NCBI GenBank assembly: GCA_948438085.1
Contig: CAOJKP010000006.1
Span: 3,284 to 67,283 of the forward strand
Source: an uncultured Clostridium sp.
Lineage (GTDB): Bacteria; Bacillota; Clostridia; TANB77; CAG-508
Length of the DNA stretch: 64,000 nt
Direction: 5' to 3'
Positions 1-51,176 of this stretch are shown one piece after another (the first letter of the stretch is position 1; each line of letters opens with the position of its first letter). The translations under genes were made by a program, and so were the position numbers. Below the pieces are notes generated by a model that was not told the DNA's origin, searched no databases, and was given only the letters and a program-made list of their open reading frames with translations.

Positions 1-2925
1 GCGTCTTCGAATATAACTTCTCCTAGATTGTTTATTACAAATTTATAACTATTATTATTTAGCTTGTATCCTATTGGTGGAGTTATTTCCTTATAATAAT
101 ATGTTCCTGGTTCTATTTTACTAAATATTACTTTTCCTTGCTTATTGGTTATAGCTTTTTGCTCTTTTCCATCTATTACAAGTATTTTTCCTTTACTATC
201 GTATATTCCTATTTCGGCTCCTTGCAATGCAACTACTGTGCCATATTTGTATTTTACAATTTCTACGCTTCCAGTTATTTTTTCGTTTTCTATTATTCTG
301 TTTCCTTCTATATCTATTATTGTTTCGTCTTCTTTAACTGTAAAGCTATATTTTGCAGTATTTAGTTTATATCCAACTGGTGCTTTTGTTTCTTTATACT
401 TATATGTTTTTCCTACTTGTAATCCTACAAATGTTACATATCCATTTTGGTTTGTTGTTGCTTTGTATTCCTTGTTTTCCTCATCTATTAATGTTATTTC
501 AGCTCCTGGTATTCCTATATTTGTTCCTTTTATAACTTTTCTAATTTCTACGTTTATTGTGTGTTTTTTATTATACAAAATACCTTTTGTGTCATTTTCA
601 AATTCGATTGTTCCATCTTCTTTTATTATAAATTTGTAATTATTTTTATCTAATTCATATCCTGTAGGTGGAGTTATTTCTTTATAATAGTATGTTCCTG
701 GCTCTAAACCATCAAATGTAATTCTTCCATCTGATGAAGTTATTCCTTTTAGTTCTTTTCCATTTAATATAACTAAATTTCCCTTATTATAGTATATTCC
801 TATTTCGGCTCCTGCAAGTTTTGTAGTAGTTCCCTCTTCGTATTTTACAATAGATATAGCTACTTTTATTCTTTCGTTTTCTATTATTCTATTTCCTGTT
901 ATGTCTACTATCCTTCCATCTTCTTCTACTTTAAAGCTATATTCGTTTTCGTTTAGGTTATAACCTAATGGAGCTGTAGTTTCTTTATATTTGTATGTCT
1001 TTTCTAATTGCAATCCTACAAATGTGACTAATCCATCTTTGTTTGTTATTGCTTTATATTCTTTTTGTTGGTCGTCTATTAATGTTATCTCTGCTCCTGC
1101 TATTCCTATATTTGTTCCTTTTAGGACTTTTTTAATGGTTACATCTACTAAATGTTTTTCATTATATAATATTCCTTTTGTGTCATTTTCAAATTCGATA
1201 TTTCCATCTTCTTTTACTATAAATTTATAAGTATTTTCATTTAGTAAATATCCTGTAGGTGAAGTTATTTCTTTATAATAATATGTTCCTGGCTCTAATC
1301 CTATAAATGTAATGTTTCCTTGTTCATTTGTTATTCCTTTTTGCTCTTTTCCATTTATTGCAAGTACGTTTCCATTATTATCATATAGTCCTATTTCTGC
1401 TCCTGCAAGTGGTGTAGTTGAGCCTTCTTCATATTTTATAATAGATACATTTACTTTTATTCTTTCGTTTTCTATTGTTCTATTTCCTACAATATCAACT
1501 ATTATTTCATTTGCTTCTACTCTGAAGCTGTATTCTTTTTCATTTAAAATGTATCCTAATGGTGCTTTTGTTTCTTTATACTTATATGTTTTTCCTACTT
1601 GTACTCCTACAAATGTTACATTTCCTTCGGAATTTGTTATTGCTTTATATTCATTGTTTGCTTCGTCTATTAAAGTTATACCAGCTCCTGCTATTCCTAT
1701 ATTGGTTCCTTTTATTACCTTTTTGATTGTTACATCTATTAAATGTTTTTCATTATATAATATTCCTTTTGTGTCATTTTCAAATTCGATATTTCCATCT
1801 TCTTTTACTATAAATTTATAAGTATTTTCATTTAGTAAATATCCTGTAGGTGAAGTTATTTCTTTATAATAATATGTTCCTGGCTCTAATCCTATAAATG
1901 TAATGTTTCCTTGTTCATTTGTTATTCCTTTTTGTCCTACTCCATTTATTTGTATAAGTTGTCCATTTTCTCCATATATTCCTATTTCTGCTCCTGCAAG
2001 TGGTGTAGTCGAACCTTTTTCATATTTTATAATGGTTACATTTACTTTTATTCTTTCGTTTTCTATTATTCTATTTCCTGTTATGTCTACTATTATTTCA
2101 TTTTCTTCTACCCTAAAACTATATTCATTTTCATTTAATGTATATCCTAATGGAGCACTAGTTTCTTTATATTTATACGTTTTTCCTACTTGTACTCCTA
2201 CAAATGTTACATATCCTTCTTGATTTGTTGTTGCTGTATATTCTTTGTTTTCTTCATCTATTAGGGTTATCTTTGCTCCTGGTATTCCTATGTTTGTTCC
2301 TTTTACTACTTTTTTTATTTGTACATCTATTAAATGTTTTTCATTATATAGAATACCTTTTGTATCATTTTCAAATTCAATACTTCCGTCTTCTTTTACT
2401 ATAAATTTATAACTATTTTCGTTTAGTAAATATCCGATAGGTGCTTTTATTTCTTTGTAATAATATGTTCCTGGCTCTAATCCTATAAGTGTAACTTTTC
2501 CTCGTTTATTTGTTATTCCTTTTAGTTTTTTTCCATTTATTTCTACAAGTTGTCCATCTTCTCTATATATTCCTATCTCTGCTCCTAAAAGTGGTATAGT
2601 AGAATCTTTTTCGTATTTTGTAATATCTATACTTACTTTTATTCTTTCGTCTTCTATTATTCTATTTCCTATAACATCTACTATTGTTCCATCTTCTTCC
2701 ATTCTAAAGCTGTATTCTGTTTGGTTTATATCGTATCCTAATGGTGCACTAGTTTCTTTATATTTATATGTTTTTCCTACTTGAACTCCTACAAATGTTA
2801 CATATCCTTCTTTATTTGTTGTTGCTGTATATTCTTTGTTTTCCTCATCTATTAATGTTATTTTTGCTCCTTCTAATCCAGTGGTTGTTCCTTTTATTAC
2901 TTTTTGTATTGTTACTTTTAACATT
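1..2925 (-). repeat. About 5 tandem copies of a 591-bp (197-aa) coding unit, each a pair of SpaA-like domains, inside the adhesin
   Basis: Near-identical protein blocks 'KKVIKGTNIGI.GA.ITLIDE.NKEY.A.TN..G.VTFVG.Q.GKTYKYKET.AP.GY...' recur. Antisense ORFs in the track recur at 1312 and 1903 (591-bp spacing). The array continues past the window edge. Confidence 0.85.
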
Positions 2926-5900
2926 TCTTCTGGTACTTTAAATGTATTTGTTATAGTTTTCGTTTCTTCATCATAACTTGCTACATAGAATCTTAAATCA
3001 TTTGCATTTACTTCTGTTTCAGAAATTGTGTATACTATTTCGTTTCCATTTTCATCGTATTTTTTTGCATCTGTAAATGTTATATCTTTATTGCTTTCAG
3101 TTGTTATTGTTGCTTCTTTTAATATTTCTGCTCCTTTTTTTAGTTGTATTTTTATATTTTGTGGTCTATGTACTTTTTGTAACTCTGTATCTACCCATAC
3201 TTTATGTCCTGTAATGCTTATTTTTTCTTCTGCCATATCACTTGGTACTCTAAATGTGTTTGTTATTGTTTTTGTTTCTTCATCGTAGCTTCCAACATAG
3301 AATCTTAAATCATTTGTATTTACTTCTGTTTCAGAAATTGTGTATACTATTTCTTCTCCATTTTCATCATATTTTGGTATATCTGTAAATATTATGTCTT
3401 TATTTCCTTCGGTTGTTATTATTTCTTCTTTTATTACTTCATTTCCATTTTTTACTTGTATTTTTATATTTACTGGTCTTTTTGTTTTTTGCAATTCTGT
3501 ATCTACCCATACTTTATGTCCTGTAATACTTATTTTTTCTCCTGCCATGTCACTTGGTACTCTAAATGTGTTTGTTATTGTTTTTGTTTCTTCATCGTAA
3601 CTTCCAACATAGAATTTTAAGTCATTTGTATTTACTTCTGTTTCAGAAATTGTATATACTATTTCGTTTCCGTTTTCGTCATATTTTTTTACATCTGTAA
3701 ATGTTATATCTTTGTCACTTTCAGTTGTTATTATTTCTTCTTTTATTATTTCATTTCCTTTTTTTAGCTGTAATTCTATACTTGTTGGTCGCTTTCCTTT
3801 TTGCAACTCTGTATCTACCCATACTTTATGTCCTGTAATATTTGTTTTTTCTTCTGCTATGTCACTTGGTAGGCTAAATGTGTTTGTTATTGTTTTTGTT
3901 TCTTCATCGTAACTTCCAACATAGAATTTTAAGTCATTTGTATTTACTTCTGTTTCAGAAATTGTATATACTATTTCGTCTCCGTTTTCATCGTATTTTT
4001 TTACATTTGTAAATATTATGTCTTTATTATCTTCGGTTGTTATTATTTCTTCTTTTATTACTTCTGTTCCTCTTTTTAATTGTACTTTTATGTTTTTTGG
4101 TCTATGTACTTTTTGCAACTCTGTATCTACCCATACTTTATGCCCTGTAATGTTTATTCTTTCGTTTACCATTTCTTCTGGTACTCTAAATGTATTTGTT
4201 ATGGTTTTTGTTTCTTCATCATAATTTGCTGCATAGAATTTTAAATCTTCTTCATTTACTTCTGCTTCTGAAATTTTATAGTTTATTATATTGTTATCTT
4301 TATCCAATTTATCTAATGCACTAAATACATATATCCATTCATTTGAGTTTTCTGGATTTTCATATGTTTTATCAACAATTTTACTTGCAACTACTTCCCC
4401 AGCTTCATTTTTAATTTGAAGTTTTATAGATGTTGGTCTTTTAGATTTATTTTCTTCATCATTCCATATTTTCTTTACTGTGATTGATTTTGCAATTTCT
4501 CCGTTTAACTCATTTTCAAATAGTAGCTCTATGTTGTTTTCATTTACATTGGAAATTATTCCATTTCCTTCCACTTTTTCAATTGTAATTTTTCCTGTAT
4601 CTTTATCTCTTGTAAATGTAATTTTCTTTATTTGTTCATCTTTTATATATTTTGAAGCTGAGTCAATTTCTGCTAATGTTATTTGTATTCTTCCTGTTCC
4701 TCTTATATTATTTAAATTAATTTTTCCTAATTCATCTGTTCTTATTTCCTTATAATAGTTTTCTCCACTTTCTGCTTCAACATGTACATTTATTAGTGTA
4801 TTTGGTACTTTATATTCATGGTTTAGATTATCTATTTTTATTACGTTTATTGAATACCCCTTATCTAAATCTGGATTTATACTTGTTGTATCTAAATTGT
4901 CATATAGTAATAAATGAACATATTCATCTCCATATTTTTCTACTTCAGCATTTCCGCTTTGTATGTATGCATTTGTTATTACTTTTATTCCATTTATTAA
5001 TGATACTTCTATTTTTAATATTATTGGAGTTGTATCTAATGCATATCCGAATGGTGCTTCTAATTCTGTTATTGTATATGTATATTCTCCACTCATATTT
5101 GGCATTGGAATATCTTGTAATGCCATTAGACCTTCTTTATAATCTTTCAATTCGTATAAATCGTTTCCGCCTTCTATTTTAACACTGTATTTTGCTCCTG
5201 TTAGAATTATATTATGGTCATTAGCATCTACCTTGTTTGCTCCCATAATGAATGTTCCATCTGGATAGTTTCTTATTCTAATTTTTACTTTTTTAGTATC
5301 GTTATCTATGTATGTATCAACATTACTTGTACAATTATCTAATTTTATCCAGCTATTTTCTTTATTTATATTTAATACTACTTGCTTTGGTTTTATATCA
5401 AATCTTCTTCCTGGTGGTGGTTCTATTTCTGTTATTTTTATGGTTGCTTTACCATTTCCATAAATATTATTTAAATATATTTTTCCATCTTCATCTGTTA
5501 GGCTAGTTTTTACTACTCCACTTTGTCCACTTTCATTATCTACTTTTAGTTTTATTTTTGCATCTTTAAATGTTATGCTTGAATAATATGCATCTGCTTT
5601 TATTAATTCTATGTCGTACTTTAGTCCTTCTTCATTCTTTTGATTTAATACACTTAATTCTATATATTCTGCATCTTGTCTTGTTACATCTGCATACTCA
5701 TTTTCTCCATCAATATATGCTTCTGCAATTATTCCATTTAGATATCTAACTTTTAGGTTTATTGGCCCACTTGTTATTCTATATCCTCCTGGTGCTTCTA
5801 TTTCATTTATTCTAAATGTATATGTTCCATCTGGTTTTAGTGGTAAGTTTATATAGTCTATTCCTTCTTCGCCAGTTATTAACTCATATTTTTCTGAAGT

Positions 5901-8900
5901 TGCTACATCTGTAATTTCAAATTTTGCATTTTTTAGTGTTATTAAATCGTCATCATAGTCTTGTTTTTGTATTGCAATTCCCATCGAACTTGGAGTTTCT
6001 TTTATTTTTACATTTACTATTTTATTTATATTGTCTACTTTTGCAGTTAAATTTTGATTATAGTTATTATCTAATAATGTTATTAGTTGCGATGTTTCAT
6101 CTCTATTAATTCTTATTGTATGCCTATTTTCATCTAATAAATATTCTGCTGGTTCTAATGTTTCTACTATTGTTATTGTAAAGTTTCCATATCCTAATAG
6201 TCCTCCAAATAGTATTTGTCCTTTACTATTTGTTTTTGCAATTTTTGATGTCGATTCTTTTGTTTCTTCATTATAAATATATATTACATATTGTGCATCT
6301 TTTACCTTTATTTTTTCATTAAATAGATGTACTTTTTCTAATAGAATTCCAAAATCTGGTTCAGCTTCTCCTGGTATTGGTCGTATTGGACTTGGAATAT
6401 TACCTTCTGGTTTTGGGCTTGGTGTTGGATTTATTGTTCCCCCTCCAGTAGTTCCGCTTTCCCATTGACTTTCACCAGATGTCCCACCTCCTCCAATTCC
6501 TGTCGCACTTGTATATGTTTTTTTATCACATCTTATATCTACTTTTATTACATTTTCTCCAACATAGTCAAAATCTGGGTCTATTTGTGCTGCAATTCTT
6601 CCTTCATCATCACATCGTCCTGAGATAATTTCTGCATGTTGCATTTTACCATTTGAATTATATGTTATACTTAAAATTACATCTTTATTTTTTATGTAAC
6701 TTTTATCTTGCATATATACATTTTTTATTAGGTATTCTTCTGTAGTATAGTACTCAGTATTTCCTAGTGATATTCTTGTTAAACCATATATATCAGTTGT
6801 TCCTTTTGATATATATGAACCTAATCTATATATTTCAAATGTTGTTCCTTTTATTTTTACACTATGATCTCGTATGTATTCATTTTCTATTATTATACTA
6901 TTGTATGGTTTTCCATAGTTTGGATCTGATGGATTATAGTCTCCTGGATTGTATTCACCTGGATTGTATTCACCTGGATTATAGTCTCCTGGATTGTTTG
7001 GTTCGTCTACTCCTATTATTGGAGTATAACTTAATGGTTTATTTTTTACTCTTATTGTTATCATGTTTCCATAGGTATTAAATGATATATCGCTTCTACT
7101 AATATTTACTAGTTCGCTATCTACTAATGTTAACCTTTTTGTTTGTTCATCTCTTGTAAATACTATTTTCCTTGTTTGTCCATTAAATTCATATCCTGAT
7201 GGAGATTTTGTTTCTCTTAATGTTACTATTATTTTTCCTGTTCCATATAAGCCTGATACATATATTCCTCGACTAAAGTCTGTTGTTCTTGTTAAGTGAT
7301 AATCTGTACCATTTTGTTGAGTAATGCTAATATCAAATTTTGCTCCGTCTAATTTTGTATTGTAATTTTTTGAACTAACTTTATCTATGTGTAATGAATA
7401 TGTGTCTCCTCCTGTTATTGAGGTTTTTGTTCTTGAGTCTCCTATCTTTAAAAATATTCTTTTTCCACTTGCATTTTTTTGTATAACTGATGTTTGATAC
7501 TCGTCTCCTAACCCTTGTACTATTTCACATGTTTTAATGTTGTTATAATTGTCAAATGTTATATCTAATGCTATTTTTTTTGCTTTTTCATATCCTGAAG
7601 GTGCGTTTATTTCTTCTATAATATATCTTCCTGATACTGCCCCTGAAAGGTAAAGTGCAGTGTTTCCTCTTGTTAATGTTTCAACTATTCTTGTACCGTT
7701 TGGCATAGTAATCTTAAATCTTGCTTTTTTAAGTCCTAAGTCACGATTTTGGTTATCAACTTTTTTAATTTCTAATATTGGTGTCTCTTTCCATGTACTT
7801 TCTGCATAGTCTTTTTCATTGTACATTGTTACATATATTGTATTTTCATACATTCTTACATTTGATGTACTAGATAATAGTGAAATTGAACTCATTAGAT
7901 TTTGTTTGTTTATAGTTATTGTTTGTTTTCCGCTTTGCTTTTTGTATCCAATTGGTGCTCTTGTTTCTTCAACTTCAATTTTTATTGTTCCTCTACCATT
8001 TAAGTTAGATACTGATGTAGTACCATCTGAAGTTGTTCTTGAATAATTATTTTTAACATCTGATTGTGATACTGTAACATTAAATCCTGTTGAATATTCT
8101 ATTAGTTCATCTGTTTCAGAGTCCCTTTTTTCTATTACAATGTTATATGGCACTACTTTTTCTTTTTTTACATTTTCAACTTTTAAAGTTATTTTTCCAG
8201 TTTCATCTATTTTTACAGATGGATCTTCTGATGTTACATTTATTTGTCCAGCTTTGTTTTCTACTTCTATTATTACTGGTGTTTTATCTGATGCATATCC
8301 TAAAGGTGCTGAGGTTTCTATTATTTGTACTATTGATTTTCCTTCTGGAAAATATAATTTATTAAAATTAAGTATTCCATTTTTGTTTGTTGTACTATCT
8401 GTTGTCATTCCTCCTACTTCTGGATAGCTTACTCTTATTTTAAATGTTGCACCTGCAAGTTTTATACGATTGTCTTCTAAATCTACTTTTTCAATTTCGA
8501 TTGTTTTAAATTTTGTAGTATCTACATCTCTTCCATATCGATTTATAACTTTTAGCCTGATATCTACTTGTGTATAGTCCTCTTCTTCATATTGATCGTA
8601 TTCTTGGTCTACTATATGATAATAGCTTAATCCATCTAATACATTCATATAGCTAATTTCTAATACACCTTCTGGTGTATATTCATAATATGCTTCAAAT
8701 CCTATATCTTCATCTATTCTTTCGTATCCTACTGGTACACTTTCTTCTGTAATCCAGAATGTTAACTTTCCTTCTGACTCAGTTAAATGTTGTGGAAATA
8801 CTGAACCTAAGCTATTTATTATATCTCCATCTGTTAGTTTAGCAAGACCATTCTCATCTGTTTTTAATTTCCATTTTGTTCCTGTGCTATTTTCTCTTAA

Positions 8901-10205
8901 TTCCATTACTACATCTTTAAGTGGCCTTAAGCTTTCATCTACTTTTGTTATATACAAGGTATTATTTACTCTTTTTCCTGCTAAATTTGATTGTGAATTT
9001 TTTAAATAGTTTGTTCTATTTATTATAATTACTTTTTCTTCATCGTTTATTATTACATTTTCATTAGGCTCTACTAATTCATATTTTCCTTCTGCATTTG
9101 TTTGGAATTCTACTTTAAATTCACTTCTATCAAATTTGTACCCATCTGGTACTTTTGAACGTTTTAATCTTAATAATAATTTTTCACCTGACATTGCTTC
9201 TGATACTATTTCTCCAGATGTTGAAGTTGTTTTATTAATGGTTGTTATACGTGAAATTTGTTGAGCTGTAGCTTTTTGGATTATTTTATATCTTACACCT
9301 TCTATGAAGTCACCTGTATCTACATCTTTTTCTATTATTTTAATTGTATAATCTCCAAAAGGTCCATTTGTTCCGCTTCTTTGTAGTTGCATATCTATAT
9401 CAGCAATTTTATTTTTATATGTTCTTTCGATTTCTTCTTTTATATTTACTTGTACATCTCCTGAGATAATTGATGCTCCTGAAATTGTTCCTGATTCATC
9501 AAATGTAATATTTAAATGTATTTTATTTATTTTTTCATATCCATACACATCATCTATTTGTTCTATTTCATATAGAAAATCTCCTATTCCTGGTGCAACA
9601 AGATTATCAATTTTTGCAATTCCATCTTCATCACTTTCAATTTGTGAAAGTGTTCCATTTGGAGCTAATACTTCAAATTTTACATTTGGTATTTTAATAT
9701 CATTATCTTTTTTATCTTTTACATTTATTCTTAATATATTTTGATTATTTAAATATGTATTTTGATGTATTAAGTATAAAGTGTCTTCTTCAACATTTGC
9801 TATAATTTCTTCTGATTTATTTCCATATATTTCTATTCCATTTTCATTGGCATTTACTCTTATTCCAACGTAATTCTTTTTTGTATCTTTTTCATATCCT
9901 TGTGTTATACTTGTTTGTTTAATATATATGGTCATATTACTTTTTCCTGGTATATTTGGTATTACTAAGTTTCCTTGTGCATTTGTTGTTTGATCTTTAT
10001 ATTCTTTTGTCTCTCCACTACTATATTTTATGTTAATATCGTATTTTGTATTTTCAATTCCTACTCCATCTTCTTTGTCTTGATTTTTTAAATTAATATT
10101 AAAGTTATGTTCTAATATTTTATCATAGTATAACTTAAGTGTTAGAATACCATTTTCAGTTATTTCACCTTTTTGGTTTGTTCCACTTACTTTTGTATTT
10201 AGCAT
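1..10205 (-). CDS. Giant cell-surface adhesin, partial (C-terminus lies beyond position 1): more than 3,400 codons of SpaA/prealbumin-fold and Cna-B type Ig-like domains
   Basis: My own translation of the minus strand from ATG 10205-10203 stays open to the window edge. No closed minus-strand ORF is listed in 1-10212, which fits one ORF running off the edge. Recurrent motifs: 'G.Y...E..AP.GY' (SpaA-like) and 'ITGHKVWVDTELQK..RP..I..QLK.G...YDENG.EIVYTISETEVN.NDL.FY..SYDEETKTITNTF' (Cna-B). There is no signal peptide after this ATG. Confidence 0.85.
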   Translation of the reverse strand, partial: MLNTKVSGTNQKGEITENGILTLKLYYDKILEHNFNINLKNQDKEDGVGIENTKYDINIKYSSGETKEYKDQTTNAQGNLVIPNIPGKSNMTIYIKQTSITQGYEKDTKKNYVGIRVNANENGIEIYGNKSEEIIANVEEDTLYLIHQNTYLNNQNILRINVKDKKDNDIKIPNVKFEVLAPNGTLSQIESDEDGIAKIDNLVAPGIGDFLYEIEQIDDVYGYEKINKIHLNITFDESGTISGASIISGDVQVNIKEEIERTYKNKIADIDMQLQRSGTNGPFGDYTIKIIEKDVDTGDFIEGVRYKIIQKATAQQISRITTINKTTSTSGEIVSEAMSGEKLLLRLKRSKVPDGYKFDRSEFKVEFQTNAEGKYELVEPNENVIINDEEKVIIINRTNYLKNSQSNLAGKRVNNTLYITKVDESLRPLKDVVMELRENSTGTKWKLKTDENGLAKLTDGDIINSLGSVFPQHLTESEGKLTFWITEESVPVGYERIDEDIGFEAYYEYTPEGVLEISYMNVLDGLSYYHIVDQEYDQYEEEDYTQVDIRLKVINRYGRDVDTTKFKTIEIEKVDLEDNRIKLAGATFKIRVSYPEVGGMTTDSTTNKNGILNFNKLYFPEGKSIVQIIETSAPLGYASDKTPVIIEVENKAGQINVTSEDPSVKIDETGKITLKVENVKKEKVVPYNIVIEKRDSETDELIEYSTGFNVTVSQSDVKNNYSRTTSDGTTSVSNLNGRGTIKIEVEETRAPIGYKKQSGKQTITINKQNLMSSISLLSSTSNVRMYENTIYVTMYNEKDYAESTWKETPILEIKKVDNQNRDLGLKKARFKITMPNGTRIVETLTRGNTALYLSGAVSGRYIIEEINAPSGYEKAKKIALDITFDNYNNIKTCEIVQGLGDEYQTSVIQKNASGKRIFLKIGDSRTKTSITGGDTYSLHIDKVSSKNYNTKLDGAKFDISITQQNGTDYHLTRTTDFSRGIYVSGLYGTGKIIVTLRETKSPSGYEFNGQTRKIVFTRDEQTKRLTLVDSELVNISRSDISFNTYGNMITIRVKNKPLSYTPIIGVDEPNNPGDYNPGEYNPGEYNPGDYNPSDPNYGKPYNSIIIENEYIRDHSVKIKGTTFEIYRLGSYISKGTTDIYGLTRISLGNTEYYTTEEYLIKNVYMQDKSYIKNKDVILSITYNSNGKMQHAEIISGRCDDEGRIAAQIDPDFDYVGENVIKVDIRCDKKTYTSATGIGGGGTSGESQWESGTTGGGTINPTPSPKPEGNIPSPIRPIPGEAEPDFGILLEKVHLFNEKIKVKDAQYVIYIYNEETKESTSKIAKTNSKGQILFGGLLGYGNFTITIVETLEPAEYLLDENRHTIRINRDETSQLITLLDNNYNQNLTAKVDNINKIVNVKIKETPSSMGIAIQKQDYDDDLITLKNAKFEITDVATSEKYELITGEEGIDYINLPLKPDGTYTFRINEIEAPGGYRITSGPINLKVRYLNGIIAEAYIDGENEYADVTRQDAEYIELSVLNQKNEEGLKYDIELIKADAYYSSITFKDAKIKLKVDNESGQSGVVKTSLTDEDGKIYLNNIYGNGKATIKITEIEPPPGRRFDIKPKQVVLNINKENSWIKLDNCTSNVDTYIDNDTKKVKIRIRNYPDGTFIMGANKVDANDHNIILTGAKYSVKIEGGNDLYELKDYKEGLMALQDIPMPNMSGEYTYTITELEAPFGYALDTTPIILKIEVSLINGIKVITNAYIQSGNAEVEKYGDEYVHLLLYDNLDTTSINPDLDKGYSINVIKIDNLNHEYKVPNTLINVHVEAESGENYYKEIRTDELGKINLNNIRGTGRIQITLAEIDSASKYIKDEQIKKITFTRDKDTGKITIEKVEGNGIISNVNENNIELLFENELNGEIAKSITVKKIWNDEENKSKRPTSIKLQIKNEAGEVVASKIVDKTYENPENSNEWIYVFSALDKLDKDNNIINYKISEAEVNEEDLKFYAANYDEETKTITNTFRVPEEMVNERINITGHKVWVDTELQKVHRPKNIKVQLKRGTEVIKEEIITTEDNKDIIFTNVKKYDENGDEIVYTISETEVNTNDLKFYVGSYDEETKTITNTFSLPSDIAEEKTNITGHKVWVDTELQKGKRPTSIELQLKKGNEIIKEEIITTESDKDITFTDVKKYDENGNEIVYTISETEVNTNDLKFYVGSYDEETKTITNTFRVPSDMAGEKISITGHKVWVDTELQKTKRPVNIKIQVKNGNEVIKEEIITTEGNKDIIFTDIPKYDENGEEIVYTISETEVNTNDLRFYVGSYDEETKTITNTFRVPSDMAEEKISITGHKVWVDTELQKVHRPQNIKIQLKKGAEILKEATITTESNKDITFTDAKKYDENGNEIVYTISETEVNANDLRFYVASYDEETKTITNTFKVPEEMLKVTIQKVIKGTTTGLEGAKITLIDEENKEYTATTNKEGYVTFVGVQVGKTYKYKETSAPLGYDINQTEYSFRMEEDGTIVDVIGNRIIEDERIKVSIDITKYEKDSTIPLLGAEIGIYREDGQLVEINGKKLKGITNKRGKVTLIGLEPGTYYYKEIKAPIGYLLNENSYKFIVKEDGSIEFENDTKGILYNEKHLIDVQIKKVVKGTNIGIPGAKITLIDEENKEYTATTNQEGYVTFVGVQVGKTYKYKETSAPLGYTLNENEYSFRVEENEIIVDITGNRIIENERIKVNVTIIKYEKGSTTPLAGAEIGIYGENGQLIQINGVGQKGITNEQGNITFIGLEPGTYYYKEITSPTGYLLNENTYKFIVKEDGNIEFENDTKGILYNEKHLIDVTIKKVIKGTNIGIAGAGITLIDEANNEYKAITNSEGNVTFVGVQVGKTYKYKETKAPLGYILNEKEYSFRVEANEIIVDIVGNRTIENERIKVNVSIIKYEEGSTTPLAGAEIGLYDNNGNVLAINGKEQKGITNEQGNITFIGLEPGTYYYKEITSPTGYLLNENTYKFIVKEDGNIEFENDTKGILYNEKHLVDVTIKKVLKGTNIGIAGAEITLIDDQQKEYKAITNKDGLVTFVGLQLEKTYKYKETTAPLGYNLNENEYSFKVEEDGRIVDITGNRIIENERIKVAISIVKYEEGTTTKLAGAEIGIYYNKGNLVILNGKELKGITSSDGRITFDGLEPGTYYYKEITPPTGYELDKNNYKFIIKEDGTIEFENDTKGILYNKKHTINVEIRKVIKGTNIGIPGAEITLIDEENKEYKATTNQNGYVTFVGLQVGKTYKYKETKAPVGYKLNTAKYSFTVKEDETIIDIEGNRIIENEKITGSVEIVKYKYGTVVALQGAEIGIYDSKGKILVIDGKEQKAITNKQGKVIFSKIEPGTYYYKEITPPIGYKLNNNSYKFVINNLGEVIFED
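2926..4500 (-). repeat. Four near-identical 312-bp (104-aa) Cna-B domain repeats plus one diverged copy, inside the adhesin
   Basis: 'ITGHKVWVDTELQK..RP' occurs 4 times with a 312-bp period (track antisense ORFs at 3028 and 3340). The diverged first copy reads 'ITVKKIWNDEENKSKRPTSIKLQIKN'. Confidence 0.85.
6931..7005 (-). repeat. Five 15-bp tandem units encoding a (G[DE]YNP)n linker inside the adhesin
   Basis: Plus strand reads ggattatagtctcct / ggattgtattcacct x2 / ggattatagtctcct / ggattgtttggttcg. The protein reads PNNPGDYNPGEYNPGEYNPGDYNPSDP. Confidence 0.8.
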
Positions 10206-16489: not shown

Positions 16490-16599
16490 TTACATTTTTC
16501 CCCATATTTTTATTTATTCTATTTTACACTATATTTTTTATTTATGCAATTCTTATTTAGTTCATAATTAAATATACTATTATTTTAGTTTATATATAT

Positions 16600-16826
16600 G
16601 TGTATTCTATACCAGCATATATATAAATTCATTATTATCTCGGCTCAATACATACATTAAGAAAGTCTAATAAAATTTTCCGAGCCTCTTCCACGTCTTT
16701 TCCTCACTCATTAAATTCGTTCGGGCGCGTCCACTCCTCCTCAAATTTCATAAGACTTTCTAAATATACTCCAATCGCATTCGATAAACCATAATGAATT
16801 TATATATATGCTGGCATAGAATACGC
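16600..16826. repeat. Nested-palindrome intergenic element, copy A: 36-bp AT-rich arms and a 155-nt GC-richer core. It is the reverse complement of copy A' at 40878-41098.
   Basis: Arms 16600-16635 and 16791-16826 pair at 34/36 positions. The core is about 95% identical (7 mismatches in 155 by hand alignment) to the reverse complement of 40911-41065. The core has its own second-level stem (ttaagaaagtct.../...agactttct). Confidence 0.85.
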
Positions 16827-16876
16827 AATTTATATTAAACAAAAACACCATTAATAAAATGGCATTTTTACTTAAA

Positions 16877-35924: not shown

Positions 35925-35952
35925 TTGACAAAAAGGAATAATAATATATATT
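35925..35952 (+). promoter_or_regulatory. Consensus-like sigma-A promoter (TTGACA, 16 nt, TATATT) reading into the core of element B
   Basis: ttgaca at 35925-35930 and tatatt at 35947-35952. No protein gene follows on this strand before the terminators at 36119-36187. Confidence 0.45.
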
Positions 35953-36070
35953 TTGTTTTGGAGTGCGCCCTTTGTGGGGACCGCCTATGGCTGTTAAAGC
36001 TTGCTTTCTACAGCCATGGTGGGGAAGGGTTAAAGCACGTAAAATAAAAAATATATATTATTATTCCTTT
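35932..36070. repeat. Nested-palindrome element B: perfect 23-bp AT-rich arms around a 93-nt GC-rich hairpin core
   Basis: Arm aaaggaataataatatatatttt (35932-35954) is the exact reverse complement of 36048-36070. The core contains ccgcctatggctgt...acagccatggtgg and gtgcgccctt...aagggttaaagcac pairings. Confidence 0.75.
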
Positions 36071-40109: not shown

Positions 40110-40253
40110 AGGATATAAGTATAAAAATATTTTATTCTCGGCAGTCGCCATTCCCCAATGGAACTGTAAAAAATACTTACGTATTTTAACAGTTCTCATC
40201 GGTCACCCACGCATGGCTCCTTATGTTCTAAAATATTTTTATACTTACATCCT
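40110..40253. repeat. Nested-palindrome element C: 25-bp AT-rich arms (24/25) around a 94-nt GC-richer core with a central hairpin
   Basis: Arms aggatataagtataaaaatatttta and taaaatatttttatacttacatcct. The core hairpin is gaactgtaaaaaatac-ttac-gtattttaacagttc. It shares the TCTCGGC and CGCAT arm-proximal motifs with elements A and A'. Confidence 0.7.
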
Positions 40254-40877: not shown

Positions 40878-41098
40878 TATCATAAAGTATATATATATAA
40901 TATTCATTATGAAGTATCGAATGCGATTGGAGTATATTAAGAAAGTCCTATGAAATTTGAGGAGGAGTGGACGCGCCCAAACGAATTTAATGAGTGAGGA
41001 ATAGACGTGGAAGAGGCTCGGAAAATTTCATTAGACTTTCTTAATATACGTATTGAGCCGAGATAATAATGAATATTATATATATATACTTTATGATA
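40878..41098. repeat. Nested-palindrome element copy A': perfect 33-bp arms and a 155-nt core, inverted relative to copy A
   Basis: 40878-40910 is the exact reverse complement of 41066-41098. The core is about 95% identical to the reverse complement of 16636-16790. Confidence 0.85.
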
Positions 41099-41256
41099 GC
41101 AAACTTTAATTAATCTTTTTAAATTTCCTCTTTTCTACTTTTTTTGCGTTTTTTATTGCTTTTTTTCCTTTTTCTTAATATAATCAATTATAATTTAAAG
41201 GATGTTGGTGTGAATGAAAATTTATTTTCTTTTACACAAATTTATTCCAGAAAGGA

Positions 41257-42321
41257 ATGAAATTTTTTATGAGAAAAGGCTCTGTTAGTCAACCTTCAAA
41301 TGGATATAAAATTATTGTTGTTGATGATGAAATTGGAATTATAGATTCCCTTTCTATTTTTTTAAAACGCTCTGGATATGAATTTACAGGTGTTACTGAC
41401 CCTGTGGAGGCAATTGAAAAAGTTAAAACTGAACATTTTGACTTAATGCTACTTGACTTTATTATGACTCCAATTCATGGTGATAAAGTTGTTGAAGAAA
41501 TTAGAAAATTTAATAAGGAATTATATATTTTATTACTTACAGGACATAAGGATTTGGCTCCTCCTCTTGAAACTATCCGTAGATTAGATATTCAAGGATA
41601 CTGTGAAAAAAGTGATAAATTTGATCAATTGTTATTATTAATAGAATCTGGTATAAAAGCTATTTCACAAATGAATTTGATTAAAGAAATTAACAATGAA
41701 TTAAAAGATGCTAATGATAAGTTAGAGAAAGCATATTTAGAAAGTATAGAAGTCCTAAGACATACAGTTGAAGCAAAAGATGTTTATACAAGAGGTCATT
41801 CTGATAGAGTTGCAGAATTTTCAGTTCTTATTGGTAAGAAACTTGGATTACCTGATAAAGATTTAAAAACATTGCAATTAGGCGGATTATTCCATGATGT
41901 TGGGAAAATTGGAGTTCCTGATAGCATTTTACTTAAGGATTCTAAACTTACACAAGATGAATATTCCGAAATTAAAAATCACCCACTCATTGGTGTTCAT
42001 ATTCTTTCAAATGCTACTATTTTTCAGGATTTAATTCCGATTGTTAAACATCATCACGAAAGATATGATGGAACAGGATATCCTAGCAAATTAAGTGGTG
42101 AAAATATTCCATATCTTGCAAGAATTACAGCAATTGCAGATACATTTGATGCCATGACTTCAAAAAGAACCTATAGAGATGCTCTTCCTATAGATGTGGT
42201 TATTAGCGAAATTCAAAAATGCAGTGGTACTCAATTTGACCCTGATATTGCAAATATATTTTTAGATATTTTAAAAAATAGTTATAATGATATTATTGAA
42301 ATTCAAAATAAATATTTATAA
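41257..42321 (+). CDS. Response-regulator receiver fused to an HD-GYP phosphodiesterase domain (RpfG-like)
   Basis: Receiver 'IIVVDDE...DLMLLDFIMTPIHG...LTGH'. HD-GYP 'RGHSDRVAE...LFHDVGKIGVPD...HHERYDGTGYP'. Confidence 0.9.
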   Translation: MKFFMRKGSVSQPSNGYKIIVVDDEIGIIDSLSIFLKRSGYEFTGVTDPVEAIEKVKTEHFDLMLLDFIMTPIHGDKVVEEIRKFNKELYILLLTGHKDLAPPLETIRRLDIQGYCEKSDKFDQLLLLIESGIKAISQMNLIKEINNELKDANDKLEKAYLESIEVLRHTVEAKDVYTRGHSDRVAEFSVLIGKKLGLPDKDLKTLQLGGLFHDVGKIGVPDSILLKDSKLTQDEYSEIKNHPLIGVHILSNATIFQDLIPIVKHHHERYDGTGYPSKLSGENIPYLARITAIADTFDAMTSKRTYRDALPIDVVISEIQKCSGTQFDPDIANIFLDILKNSYNDIIEIQNKYL

Positions 42322-50970: not shown

Positions 50971-51098
50971 ATTTCCTCCTTATTATGCTTTTTTTCGATT
51001 TATATATTATATAGTATTTCACTTATTTTTTCAACATTATTTAAGTTAATATATGTAGAATTTGCATTGAATATATATTCAATACAAATTTATATTTT

Positions 51099-51160
51099 AA
51101 ATAGATAATACATCCTAAATATTAGAATTTTATCTAACATTTAGGATGTATTATCTATTT
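51099..51160 (-). terminator. Long perfect AT-rich hairpin (22-bp stem, 18-nt loop) downstream of the DUF378 gene
   Basis: aaatagataatacatcctaaat ... atttaggatgtattatctattt. Confidence 0.6.
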
Positions 51161-51176
51161 ACCCTTATTTAATTTT

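Follow-up and report, generated by a model that had tools for sequence, protein, structure and literature searches.

A small noncoding repeat with long, copy-specific inverted arms, probably MITE-like, in an uncultured mouse-gut Clostridia lineage

An uncultured Clostridium sp., known from a 25%-GC mouse-gut Clostridia MAG, carries two intergenic nested palindromes (A and A′) in the window, which is the whole 64,000-nt stretch of DNA that was analyzed (25% GC). The interiors of the two palindromes are nearly alike and their outermost arms are unrelated, yet within each copy the outer arms pair with one another. The locus therefore raises two connected questions: what kind of element is repeated here, and how can the ends of a stem differ completely between copies and remain complementary within each? 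The first-pass annotation offered two answers to the latter, namely selection for a long stem rather than for its sequence, or insertion of a mobile core into the loop of pre-existing AT-rich hairpins.

A repeat finder recovered both palindromes, confirming that they are nested and setting their bounds at 16599–16827 (A) and 40878–41098 (A′). Their parts are as follows.

16599–16827, minus strand: complete copy A, with 37-nt arms and a 155-nt interior; its sense sequence (GAGGAGG...) is read on the minus strand.
16599–16635, no strand assigned: GT8-side arm of copy A; the inner ~19 nt are common to the other copies and the outer 18 nt (TGTGTATTCTATACCAGC) are copy-specific.
16791–16827, no strand assigned: DUF4097-side arm of copy A, pairing with 16599–16635 at 35/37 positions; both mismatches are transitions.
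16679–16742, minus strand: apical loop of copy A, 64 nt, GC-rich and purine-rich, closed by the inner stem 16653–16678/16743–16768.
40878–41098, plus strand: complete copy A′, with perfect 33-nt arms and a 155-nt interior.
40932–41049, plus strand: inner stem and loop of copy A′; the stem (40932–40958/41023–41049) is 27 nt long and 93% complementary, and the loop (40959–41022) is 64 nt.

The arms of copy A (37 nt, 95% complementary) and those of copy A′ (40878–40910 and 41066–41098; 33 nt, 100% complementary) are each separated by a spacing of 155 nt. Pairing had initially been counted as 33/33 in A′, which stands, and as 34/36 in A, for which we find 35/37. The interiors are indeed 155 nt long in both copies, but they differ at 10/155 positions rather than at the seven first reported. 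As had been noted, the inner ~20 nt of the arms are common to A and A′: 18/19 positions agree and there is one 1-bp indel, a base pair of A′ that is missing from both arms of A. The observation that the outermost arms are copy-specific and self-pairing also holds. The outer 18 nt of A and 11–13 nt of A′ are unrelated between the copies, and at the local base composition their self-complementarity would arise by chance with a probability of ~6e-7 (A) or ~3e-6 (A′).

Inside the arms, a second stem of 26–27 nt (85% complementary in A, 93% in A′) closes a 64-nt loop in each copy, in good agreement with the ~27-bp stem and ~65-nt loop described at first. The loop is purine-rich on the sense strand, as claimed (72% purine), with 53% GC against 25% for the window. 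The copies face opposite ways in the window: GAGGAGG is on the minus strand for A and on the plus strand for A′. Either strand is predicted to fold as one long hairpin (-79 to -88 kcal/mol; z-scores -11 to -13).

No associated transposase or ORF had been seen in the initial reading, and wider searches bear this out. The longest ORF overlapping A or A′ is 36 aa and lies partly in the flank. The only open antisense frame, of 55 codons, compared with 1.8 billion representative proteins, matched only unrelated repetitive proteins. A 19-codon ORF in the core (GTG..TAA) was considered as a candidate and rejected; all differences between copies are non-synonymous and are located in the stem. No transposase or recombinase gene adjoins the copies in the neighborhoods seen or occurs in the scanned right-hand third of the window, and an autonomous IS with matching ends was not found in the window and ~0.3 Mb of related loci. 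A search for a target-site duplication, one of the features that define MITEs, found no direct repeat, although the (TA)n ends would mask a duplication of TA or TATA. At the gathering threshold, Rfam recognized only four tRNAs in the window and nothing in the element, and at permissive thresholds the element gave only chance-level matches (SNORD75, E=2.1); the earlier statement that it resembles no known RNA family is thus upheld. BLASTN of the element against plasmids and phages gave no match, and five viral-contig scans returned nothing, or chance matches in coding DNA.

Further copies, which the first-pass annotation had proposed to look for, were found both in the same species and in a sister species. 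Two core probes of 20–22 nt have exactly two matches each in the window (0 expected from shuffles), and sensitive BLASTN of the window revealed no third or degenerate copy of the A-type core. A metagenome scan identified a third copy, C, on a contig (L029) that represents an unrelated locus of the same species, where the flanking genes are convergent. Its interior is again 155 nt, with 8 differences from A and 10 from A′; the interiors of A, A′ and C, at three loci in one species, are 93–95% identical. The arms of C are unlike those of A or A′ (51 nt, 86% complementary overall, including a 29-nt stretch with one mismatch). In the conserved part of the arms C has TTTATTAT/ATAATAAA where A reads TTCATTAT/ATAATGAA, a C–G to T–A change that is mirrored on both sides. 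The fourth copy, S, occupies site A in a sister species (DUF4097 83% identical) in the orientation opposite to that of the window copy; it was recovered in pieces from a single sample, with its left half on contigs L031/L032 and its right end on L054. There are thus four A-type copies (A, A′, C and S), and copy lengths are 212–229 bp. The inner ~20 nt of the arms are 75–90% identical among the four; when the two arms of one copy are compared over the same stretch, identity is 100% in A, A′ and C and 90% in S.

A relative of the A-type copies lies within the window itself.

40110–40253, minus strand: element D, a family relative, with 25-nt arms that are 96% complementary and a different, GC-rich core of 94 nt.

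The locus of D, between divergent genes, is unrelated to site A. Each arm of D, with ~15 nt of flank, is nevertheless homologous to its counterpart on the same side of S, the copy in the sister species, and the two elements have the subterminal motif TCTCGGC in common. Elsewhere the searches were negative: there is no copy in ~35 kb from a relative with 78% GT8 identity or in the 5.6 kb past the right end of the window, and a scan of genome contigs with a two-anchor pattern (GGACGCGCC...GACGTGGAAGAGG) spanning the assembly breakpoint gave only 17 chance matches in GC-rich genomes.

Two further hairpins, B in the window and E in a related species, were tried as members of the family and rejected, their arms not being significantly related. 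Element B (35932–36070) has 28-nt arms (93% complementary) around an 83-nt GC-rich core (GGAGTGCGCC...GCACGT) that is an imperfect hairpin in itself, and its flanking genes are convergent. It gave no credible Rfam match, and a match to a plastid psbA stem was at chance level. Just upstream of B, and overlapping its left arm, is the sequence TTGACA-16-TATATT, so B may be a small RNA gene. Element E (contig L030, 6410–6521) has 28-nt inverted arms (93% complementary) and a 56-nt core containing TTTTCCTAAG, the same 10-mer at which the sister-species core leaves the A-type core; a relationship between these two cores through TTTTCCTAAG is unproven.

To place the copies in their populations, we compared the window with strain contigs and with related species. 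The flanking DUF4097 protein is found with identical sequence on many mouse-gut metagenome contigs and in MAG GCA_949062245.1. Strain contigs are colinear with the window at 99.5–99.99% identity, and all have A and A′ in unchanged orientation; the orientation of A is the same in every strain contig spanning site A, and A′ in one of them (L033) is identical to that of the window. No presence/absence polymorphism within the host species itself was seen among these contigs. At both sites, metagenome contigs from many mouse-gut samples terminate or begin within the element, with breakpoints where the copies turn identical to each other, which is the expected behavior of assemblers at dispersed repeats. 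The practical effect is that the element fragments metagenome assemblies of its host organism.

In strains that differ from the window by 0.04–0.5% overall, several of the few differences fall within copy A (L018, 6886–6892 region; L019/L020/L024). They comprise a 7-nt deletion, C/T in GAGCYGAG and an A/T difference that matches the state of A′ and C; exchange between copies or assembly mixing is possible. A separate departure concerns MAG contig CARSKU010000064.1 (L034, 2536–4530), which diverges from the window past the DUF975 gene: its Tex gene is truncated and is followed by ~2 kb without a called gene, which is a rearrangement or a misassembly.

Comparison with genomes lacking a copy, another check proposed at the outset, was possible with a related species represented by contigs L030 and L052 (sample ERZ12802742; identity 90% for GT8, 89% for HD-GYP and 67% for DUF4097). 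The element is absent from it at site A (intergenic gap 217 nt vs 387 nt in the window) and at site A′ (205 vs 417 nt), and D is absent at its site (233 vs 349 nt). The initial view of a repeated element without coding capacity is therefore strengthened on two counts, with further copies in hand and relatives that lack it at the same sites. Relatives without the element have no recognizable palindrome at A and A′, although their intergenic DNA has diverged so far that a clean empty site could be reconstructed at neither. Presence and absence among close relatives indicate a lineage-restricted insertion that is variable between them.

Site A has a second kind of occupant. In a group of strains, S2, that falls in the same 90% protein clusters as S, the same terminator and native flank (TAATATAAA) are followed by a different GC-rich insert. 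This insert, in the DUF4097–GT8 gap, reads ...AAACCTCCTTTAACAAGGGAGGTGGC / GCCGACAGCCCCCTTATTAAAGGGGCTTTT (last ~70 nt of L057–L059; first ~30 nt of L043/L044). It is probably a further repeat, since contigs end within it as well. Judged from these sequences, site A has been occupied independently more than once and resembles a hot spot for insertion.

Copy A lies between DUF4097 and the GT8 operon and copy A′ between YcxB and REC-HD-GYP; each is, as originally stated, downstream of one gene and upstream of the next. The regions that separate the copies from their downstream genes are as follows.

16490–16598, minus strand: upstream region of the GT8 operon, a putative promoter region with a -10-like TAAAAT at 16521–16526; conserved in relatives without the element.
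41099–41268, plus strand: upstream region of REC-HD-GYP, a putative promoter region with TATAAT at 41179–41184; conserved in L052, which lacks the element.

These 110–170 nt 5′ of the GT8 and HD-GYP start codons, including the -10-like hexamers, are conserved in species without the element, which therefore lies upstream of them and does not supply them. On the other side, A and C are downstream of a hairpin and T-run, terminator-like as read from the sequence, that ends the upstream gene. With a terminator-like hairpin before it and a control region after it, the element occupies what appears to be a neutral gap between the two. A consensus promoter scan of the copies found promoter-like matches no commoner than in shuffles and none common to the copies. 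A, A′ and C are all oriented like their upstream gene. The first-pass annotation had seen the same orientation relative to the flanking genes; this is correct for A and A′ but fails beyond them, with S reversed, C between convergent genes and D between divergent ones.

Other parts of the window have features of their own. From ~2200 to 10200 on the minus strand no ORF of at least 130 aa is listed, and 6280–6640 resembles the antisense of coding DNA; the probable explanation is a giant minus-strand gene that continues past the window's left edge and for that reason does not appear in the ORF list. Three tRNA genes at 60366–60625 are followed by a TraG/TrwB-like coupling protein at 61615–63006 and, past the end of the window (L060, 5500–9300), by DnaB_2 and IstB/DnaA-like proteins. 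An integrated element, conjugative or phage-like, probably lies here beside the tRNA cluster. Upstream of an ABC-F gene, 51059–51161 contains a 32-bp palindrome centered on TATATA and an adjacent hairpin (29-bp arms, 6-nt loop); these two palindromes may be operator sites.

The history of the outer arms was examined by comparing five elements (A, A′, C, S and D) in a common register over 75 nt to either side, with p values from a shuffle test over 45 comparisons, uncorrected. Outside the conserved 20 nt, complementarity within a copy extends over 35 nt in A and 13 nt in A′ and covers 22/28 positions in C; in S and D the corresponding zone is not self-complementary. The outer arms of S and D match each other side by side (p=0.005 next to ...GCCGAGA and p<0.001 on the other side, among 45 uncorrected comparisons) and those of C match those of S (p=0.003, likewise uncorrected). 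Only these matches and two short ones between A and S passed the shuffle test. Arm similarities spotted by eye, such as CCAG in A, S and D, failed it, and nothing in the other copies or sites is significantly related to the outer 18-nt arm of copy A. Since the side-specific homology of S with D and of C with S connects different loci, the outer arms appear to travel with the element. On these comparisons, the ancestral outer arms would have been asymmetric, as they are in S and D, and those of A, A′ and C would since have become symmetric within each copy.

The substitutions point in the same direction. Of 66 pairs predicted by RNAalifold, 7 have changed at both partners, and the outer stem accounts for 6 of these. 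The outer stems consist almost purely of Watson–Crick pairs, and the mismatches in the arms are transitions, without strand bias or G–U preference for one strand. Together, the mirrored indel, the mirrored substitution, the symmetrized arms and the unbiased transitions are a signature of arm-onto-arm copying; this argument for concerted evolution draws on few sequences, the four A-type copies and D. In bacteria, as elsewhere, the arms of inverted repeats can be homogenized and extended by template switching from one to the other (PMC8604942, PMC5941160, PMC8794818). The process is documented mainly at spacers of <=70 nt, and the spacer of this element is 155 nt.

How do the two original answers, and others, fare against this evidence? 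If a shorter mobile unit, the core with ~20-bp inverted ends, preferentially enters hairpin loops, or the centers of AT-rich palindromes, that were already in place, the outer arms would be native target DNA. Long AT-rich hairpins with 20–29-bp arms are common in the intergenic regions of this genome, weaker complementarity extends into apparent flanking DNA in A, C and S, and the independent arrival of different inserts at site A in close relatives suggests a target preference. The relatives without the element at A and A′, however, show no matching palindrome. The outer arms of S and D, homologous side by side at unrelated loci, move with the element, and those of C and S are also related across loci; at site A, moreover, the window copy and S have unrelated outer arms beside the same native flank (TAATATAAAT). 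Insertion into pre-existing hairpins is not borne out by these comparisons and seems unlikely. The other answer becomes most specific if the core is taken as a structured small RNA: a long stem would present the purine-rich loop with its many GGA motifs, RNase III would release this loop, and selection at the RNA level would keep the arms paired. The sense core does fold more stably than the antisense in three copies (-38.6 vs -20.2, -43.1 vs -39.9 and -32.3 vs -22.9 kcal/mol), but a G-rich strand folds better than its complement whatever its function. Three inner-stem changes in copy A give G–U pairs on the sense strand only, whereas the outer stems are perfect Watson–Crick helices without wobble intermediates. 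That A, A′ and C point the same way as their upstream gene would suit a transcribed unit; against this, A and C follow terminator-like hairpins of that gene, S is reversed at the same site, and the copies have no common promoter, promoter-like matches being no commoner than in shuffles. The loop, with six GGA motifs, is the least variable part of the element, but D retains the arms and carries a different core, and Rfam gave no match. Selection for a long stem is accordingly not demonstrated, with outer stems of nearly pure Watson–Crick pairs, no G–U bias toward one strand, terminator-like hairpins upstream and no promoter, and we regard a small RNA as a rather improbable account of the core.

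A further possibility is an inverton, in which a site-specific recombinase flips the core between the inverted repeats and so controls the GT8 surface-glycan operon and the c-di-GMP phosphodiesterase gene. In architecture and size (inverted repeats around about 155–195 bp) the element is like known invertons, and A and A′ are upstream of gene classes, surface glycan and c-di-GMP, that are phase-variable in Bacteroides and C. difficile. In all contigs, from >10 samples, A and A′ nevertheless have a single orientation, although assemblies show the majority state only. Beyond the element, the downstream genes have upstream regions of their own that are conserved even in species without it; the consensus scan found no promoter inside it; copy C lies between convergent genes; and no recombinase gene adjoins any copy. 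Orientation at site A does differ between the window species and the sister species, but in S the reversal takes in the side-specific outer ends as well as the core; it is thus the element as a whole, not just the spacer, that has been reversed. We consider inversion of this kind very improbable.

On balance, the element is probably a non-autonomous, MITE-like repeat with long inverted repeats, whose arms coevolve in each copy by arm-onto-arm copying. The family is undescribed, small (~145–260 bp) and noncoding, and it resides in an uncultured 25%-GC mouse-gut Clostridia lineage. Like a MITE, it is shorter than ~500 bp, has no coding capacity, has conserved terminal inverted repeats, occurs as dispersed copies (three loci plus D) and is present or absent at orthologous sites. 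We infer that it is mobilized in trans. The inner ~20 bp of the arms (TATRTATAAAWATTYATTAT) and the subterminal motifs (...TATCGAATGCG / GAGCCGAGATA...) would be the likely sites for a transposase supplied from elsewhere, and the central core would be interchangeable (155 nt in A, A′ and C; 94 nt in D). Copies would settle in "safe" intergenic gaps that reach from the terminator-like hairpin of the upstream gene to the conserved upstream region of the next. The outer arms would be part of the element and would undergo concerted evolution within each copy: during replication, one arm may template the other, through quasi-palindrome template switching or short-tract gene conversion. Such copying would erase mismatches and mirror indels, and could lengthen the perfect repeat. 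If the arms are copied onto one another in this way, the compensation seen in the stem is a by-product at the DNA level and not evidence of a selected RNA stem. A read-through transcript, if made, would fold as a perfect duplex of 33–37 bp and would be a plausible RNase III target or roadblock. No dedicated function of the element is indicated.

The core may be under some constraint. The loop has 2 variable sites in 64 nt compared with 12 in 91 nt for the rest of the interior; its greater conservation, together with its GC-richness in an AT-rich genome, hints at this. We give quite little credence to a more unusual reading, a distinct hairpin-based element in which a conserved "chassis" of long, AT-rich arms carries swappable GC-rich cores (A-type, 155 nt; D-type, 94 nt) and is re-templated during propagation via a folded single strand, or which spreads the GGA-rich, purine-rich loop through the genome as a functional RNA or a protein-binding module. 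If the core is functional, as an RNA or as a protein-binding site, the repeat would be a dispersed regulatory module. As the MITE-like repeat that we favor, it adds an undescribed family from an uncultured, very AT-rich lineage of gut Clostridia, and it carries a caution: homogenization of arms at the DNA level can mimic "compensatory" stem evolution without selection on RNA. This is relevant wherever covariation is used to call structured RNAs in repeat-rich genomes.

Several known systems share part of this anatomy. Invertons, such as the capsule promoters of B. fragilis and the flagellar, cwpV and pdcB switches of C. difficile, likewise have inverted repeats around 150–200 bp upstream of surface or c-di-GMP genes; the element differs in having no within-species orientation polymorphism, no internal promoter and no nearby recombinase, and in having one copy between convergent genes. 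REPINs and REP-BIME, which are mobilized by RAYT, are also intergenic, hairpin-forming, noncoding and highly repeated. In REPINs, however, the loop varies and the stems are the conserved part, whereas this element combines a conserved core with a variable outer stem; REPs are also short, GC-rich sequences, in contrast to the AT-rich stems of the element, which does not consist of short GC-rich palindromes conserved between copies. Quasi-palindrome correction (the Ripley model) accounts for perfect Watson–Crick arms and for substitutions and indels that are mirrored between them, and it lets the repeat grow outward, all with no need for individual pairs to be selected. The known cases mostly involve short spacers (<=70 nt) and single loci; in this family the process would have to recur in a mobile repeat whose spacer is 155 nt long.

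The closest likeness is to Correia elements (NEMIS/CREE) of Neisseria, ERIC/IRU of enterobacteria and bacterial MITEs, which are noncoding repeats of 100–250 bp with terminal inverted repeats that occur in many intergenic copies and form long hairpins in transcripts that include them; in the case of Correia, RNase III cleaves these hairpins (review PMC10969869). The element has no sequence similarity to such repeats and no Rfam or BLAST match, and its arms are longer (33–51 nt) and AT-rich. Its outer arms differ from copy to copy and still pair with one another, unlike the ends of Correia and ERIC elements, which are conserved among copies, and its core is swappable (A-type vs D-type). A member of no named family, it works like Correia or ERIC-type elements.
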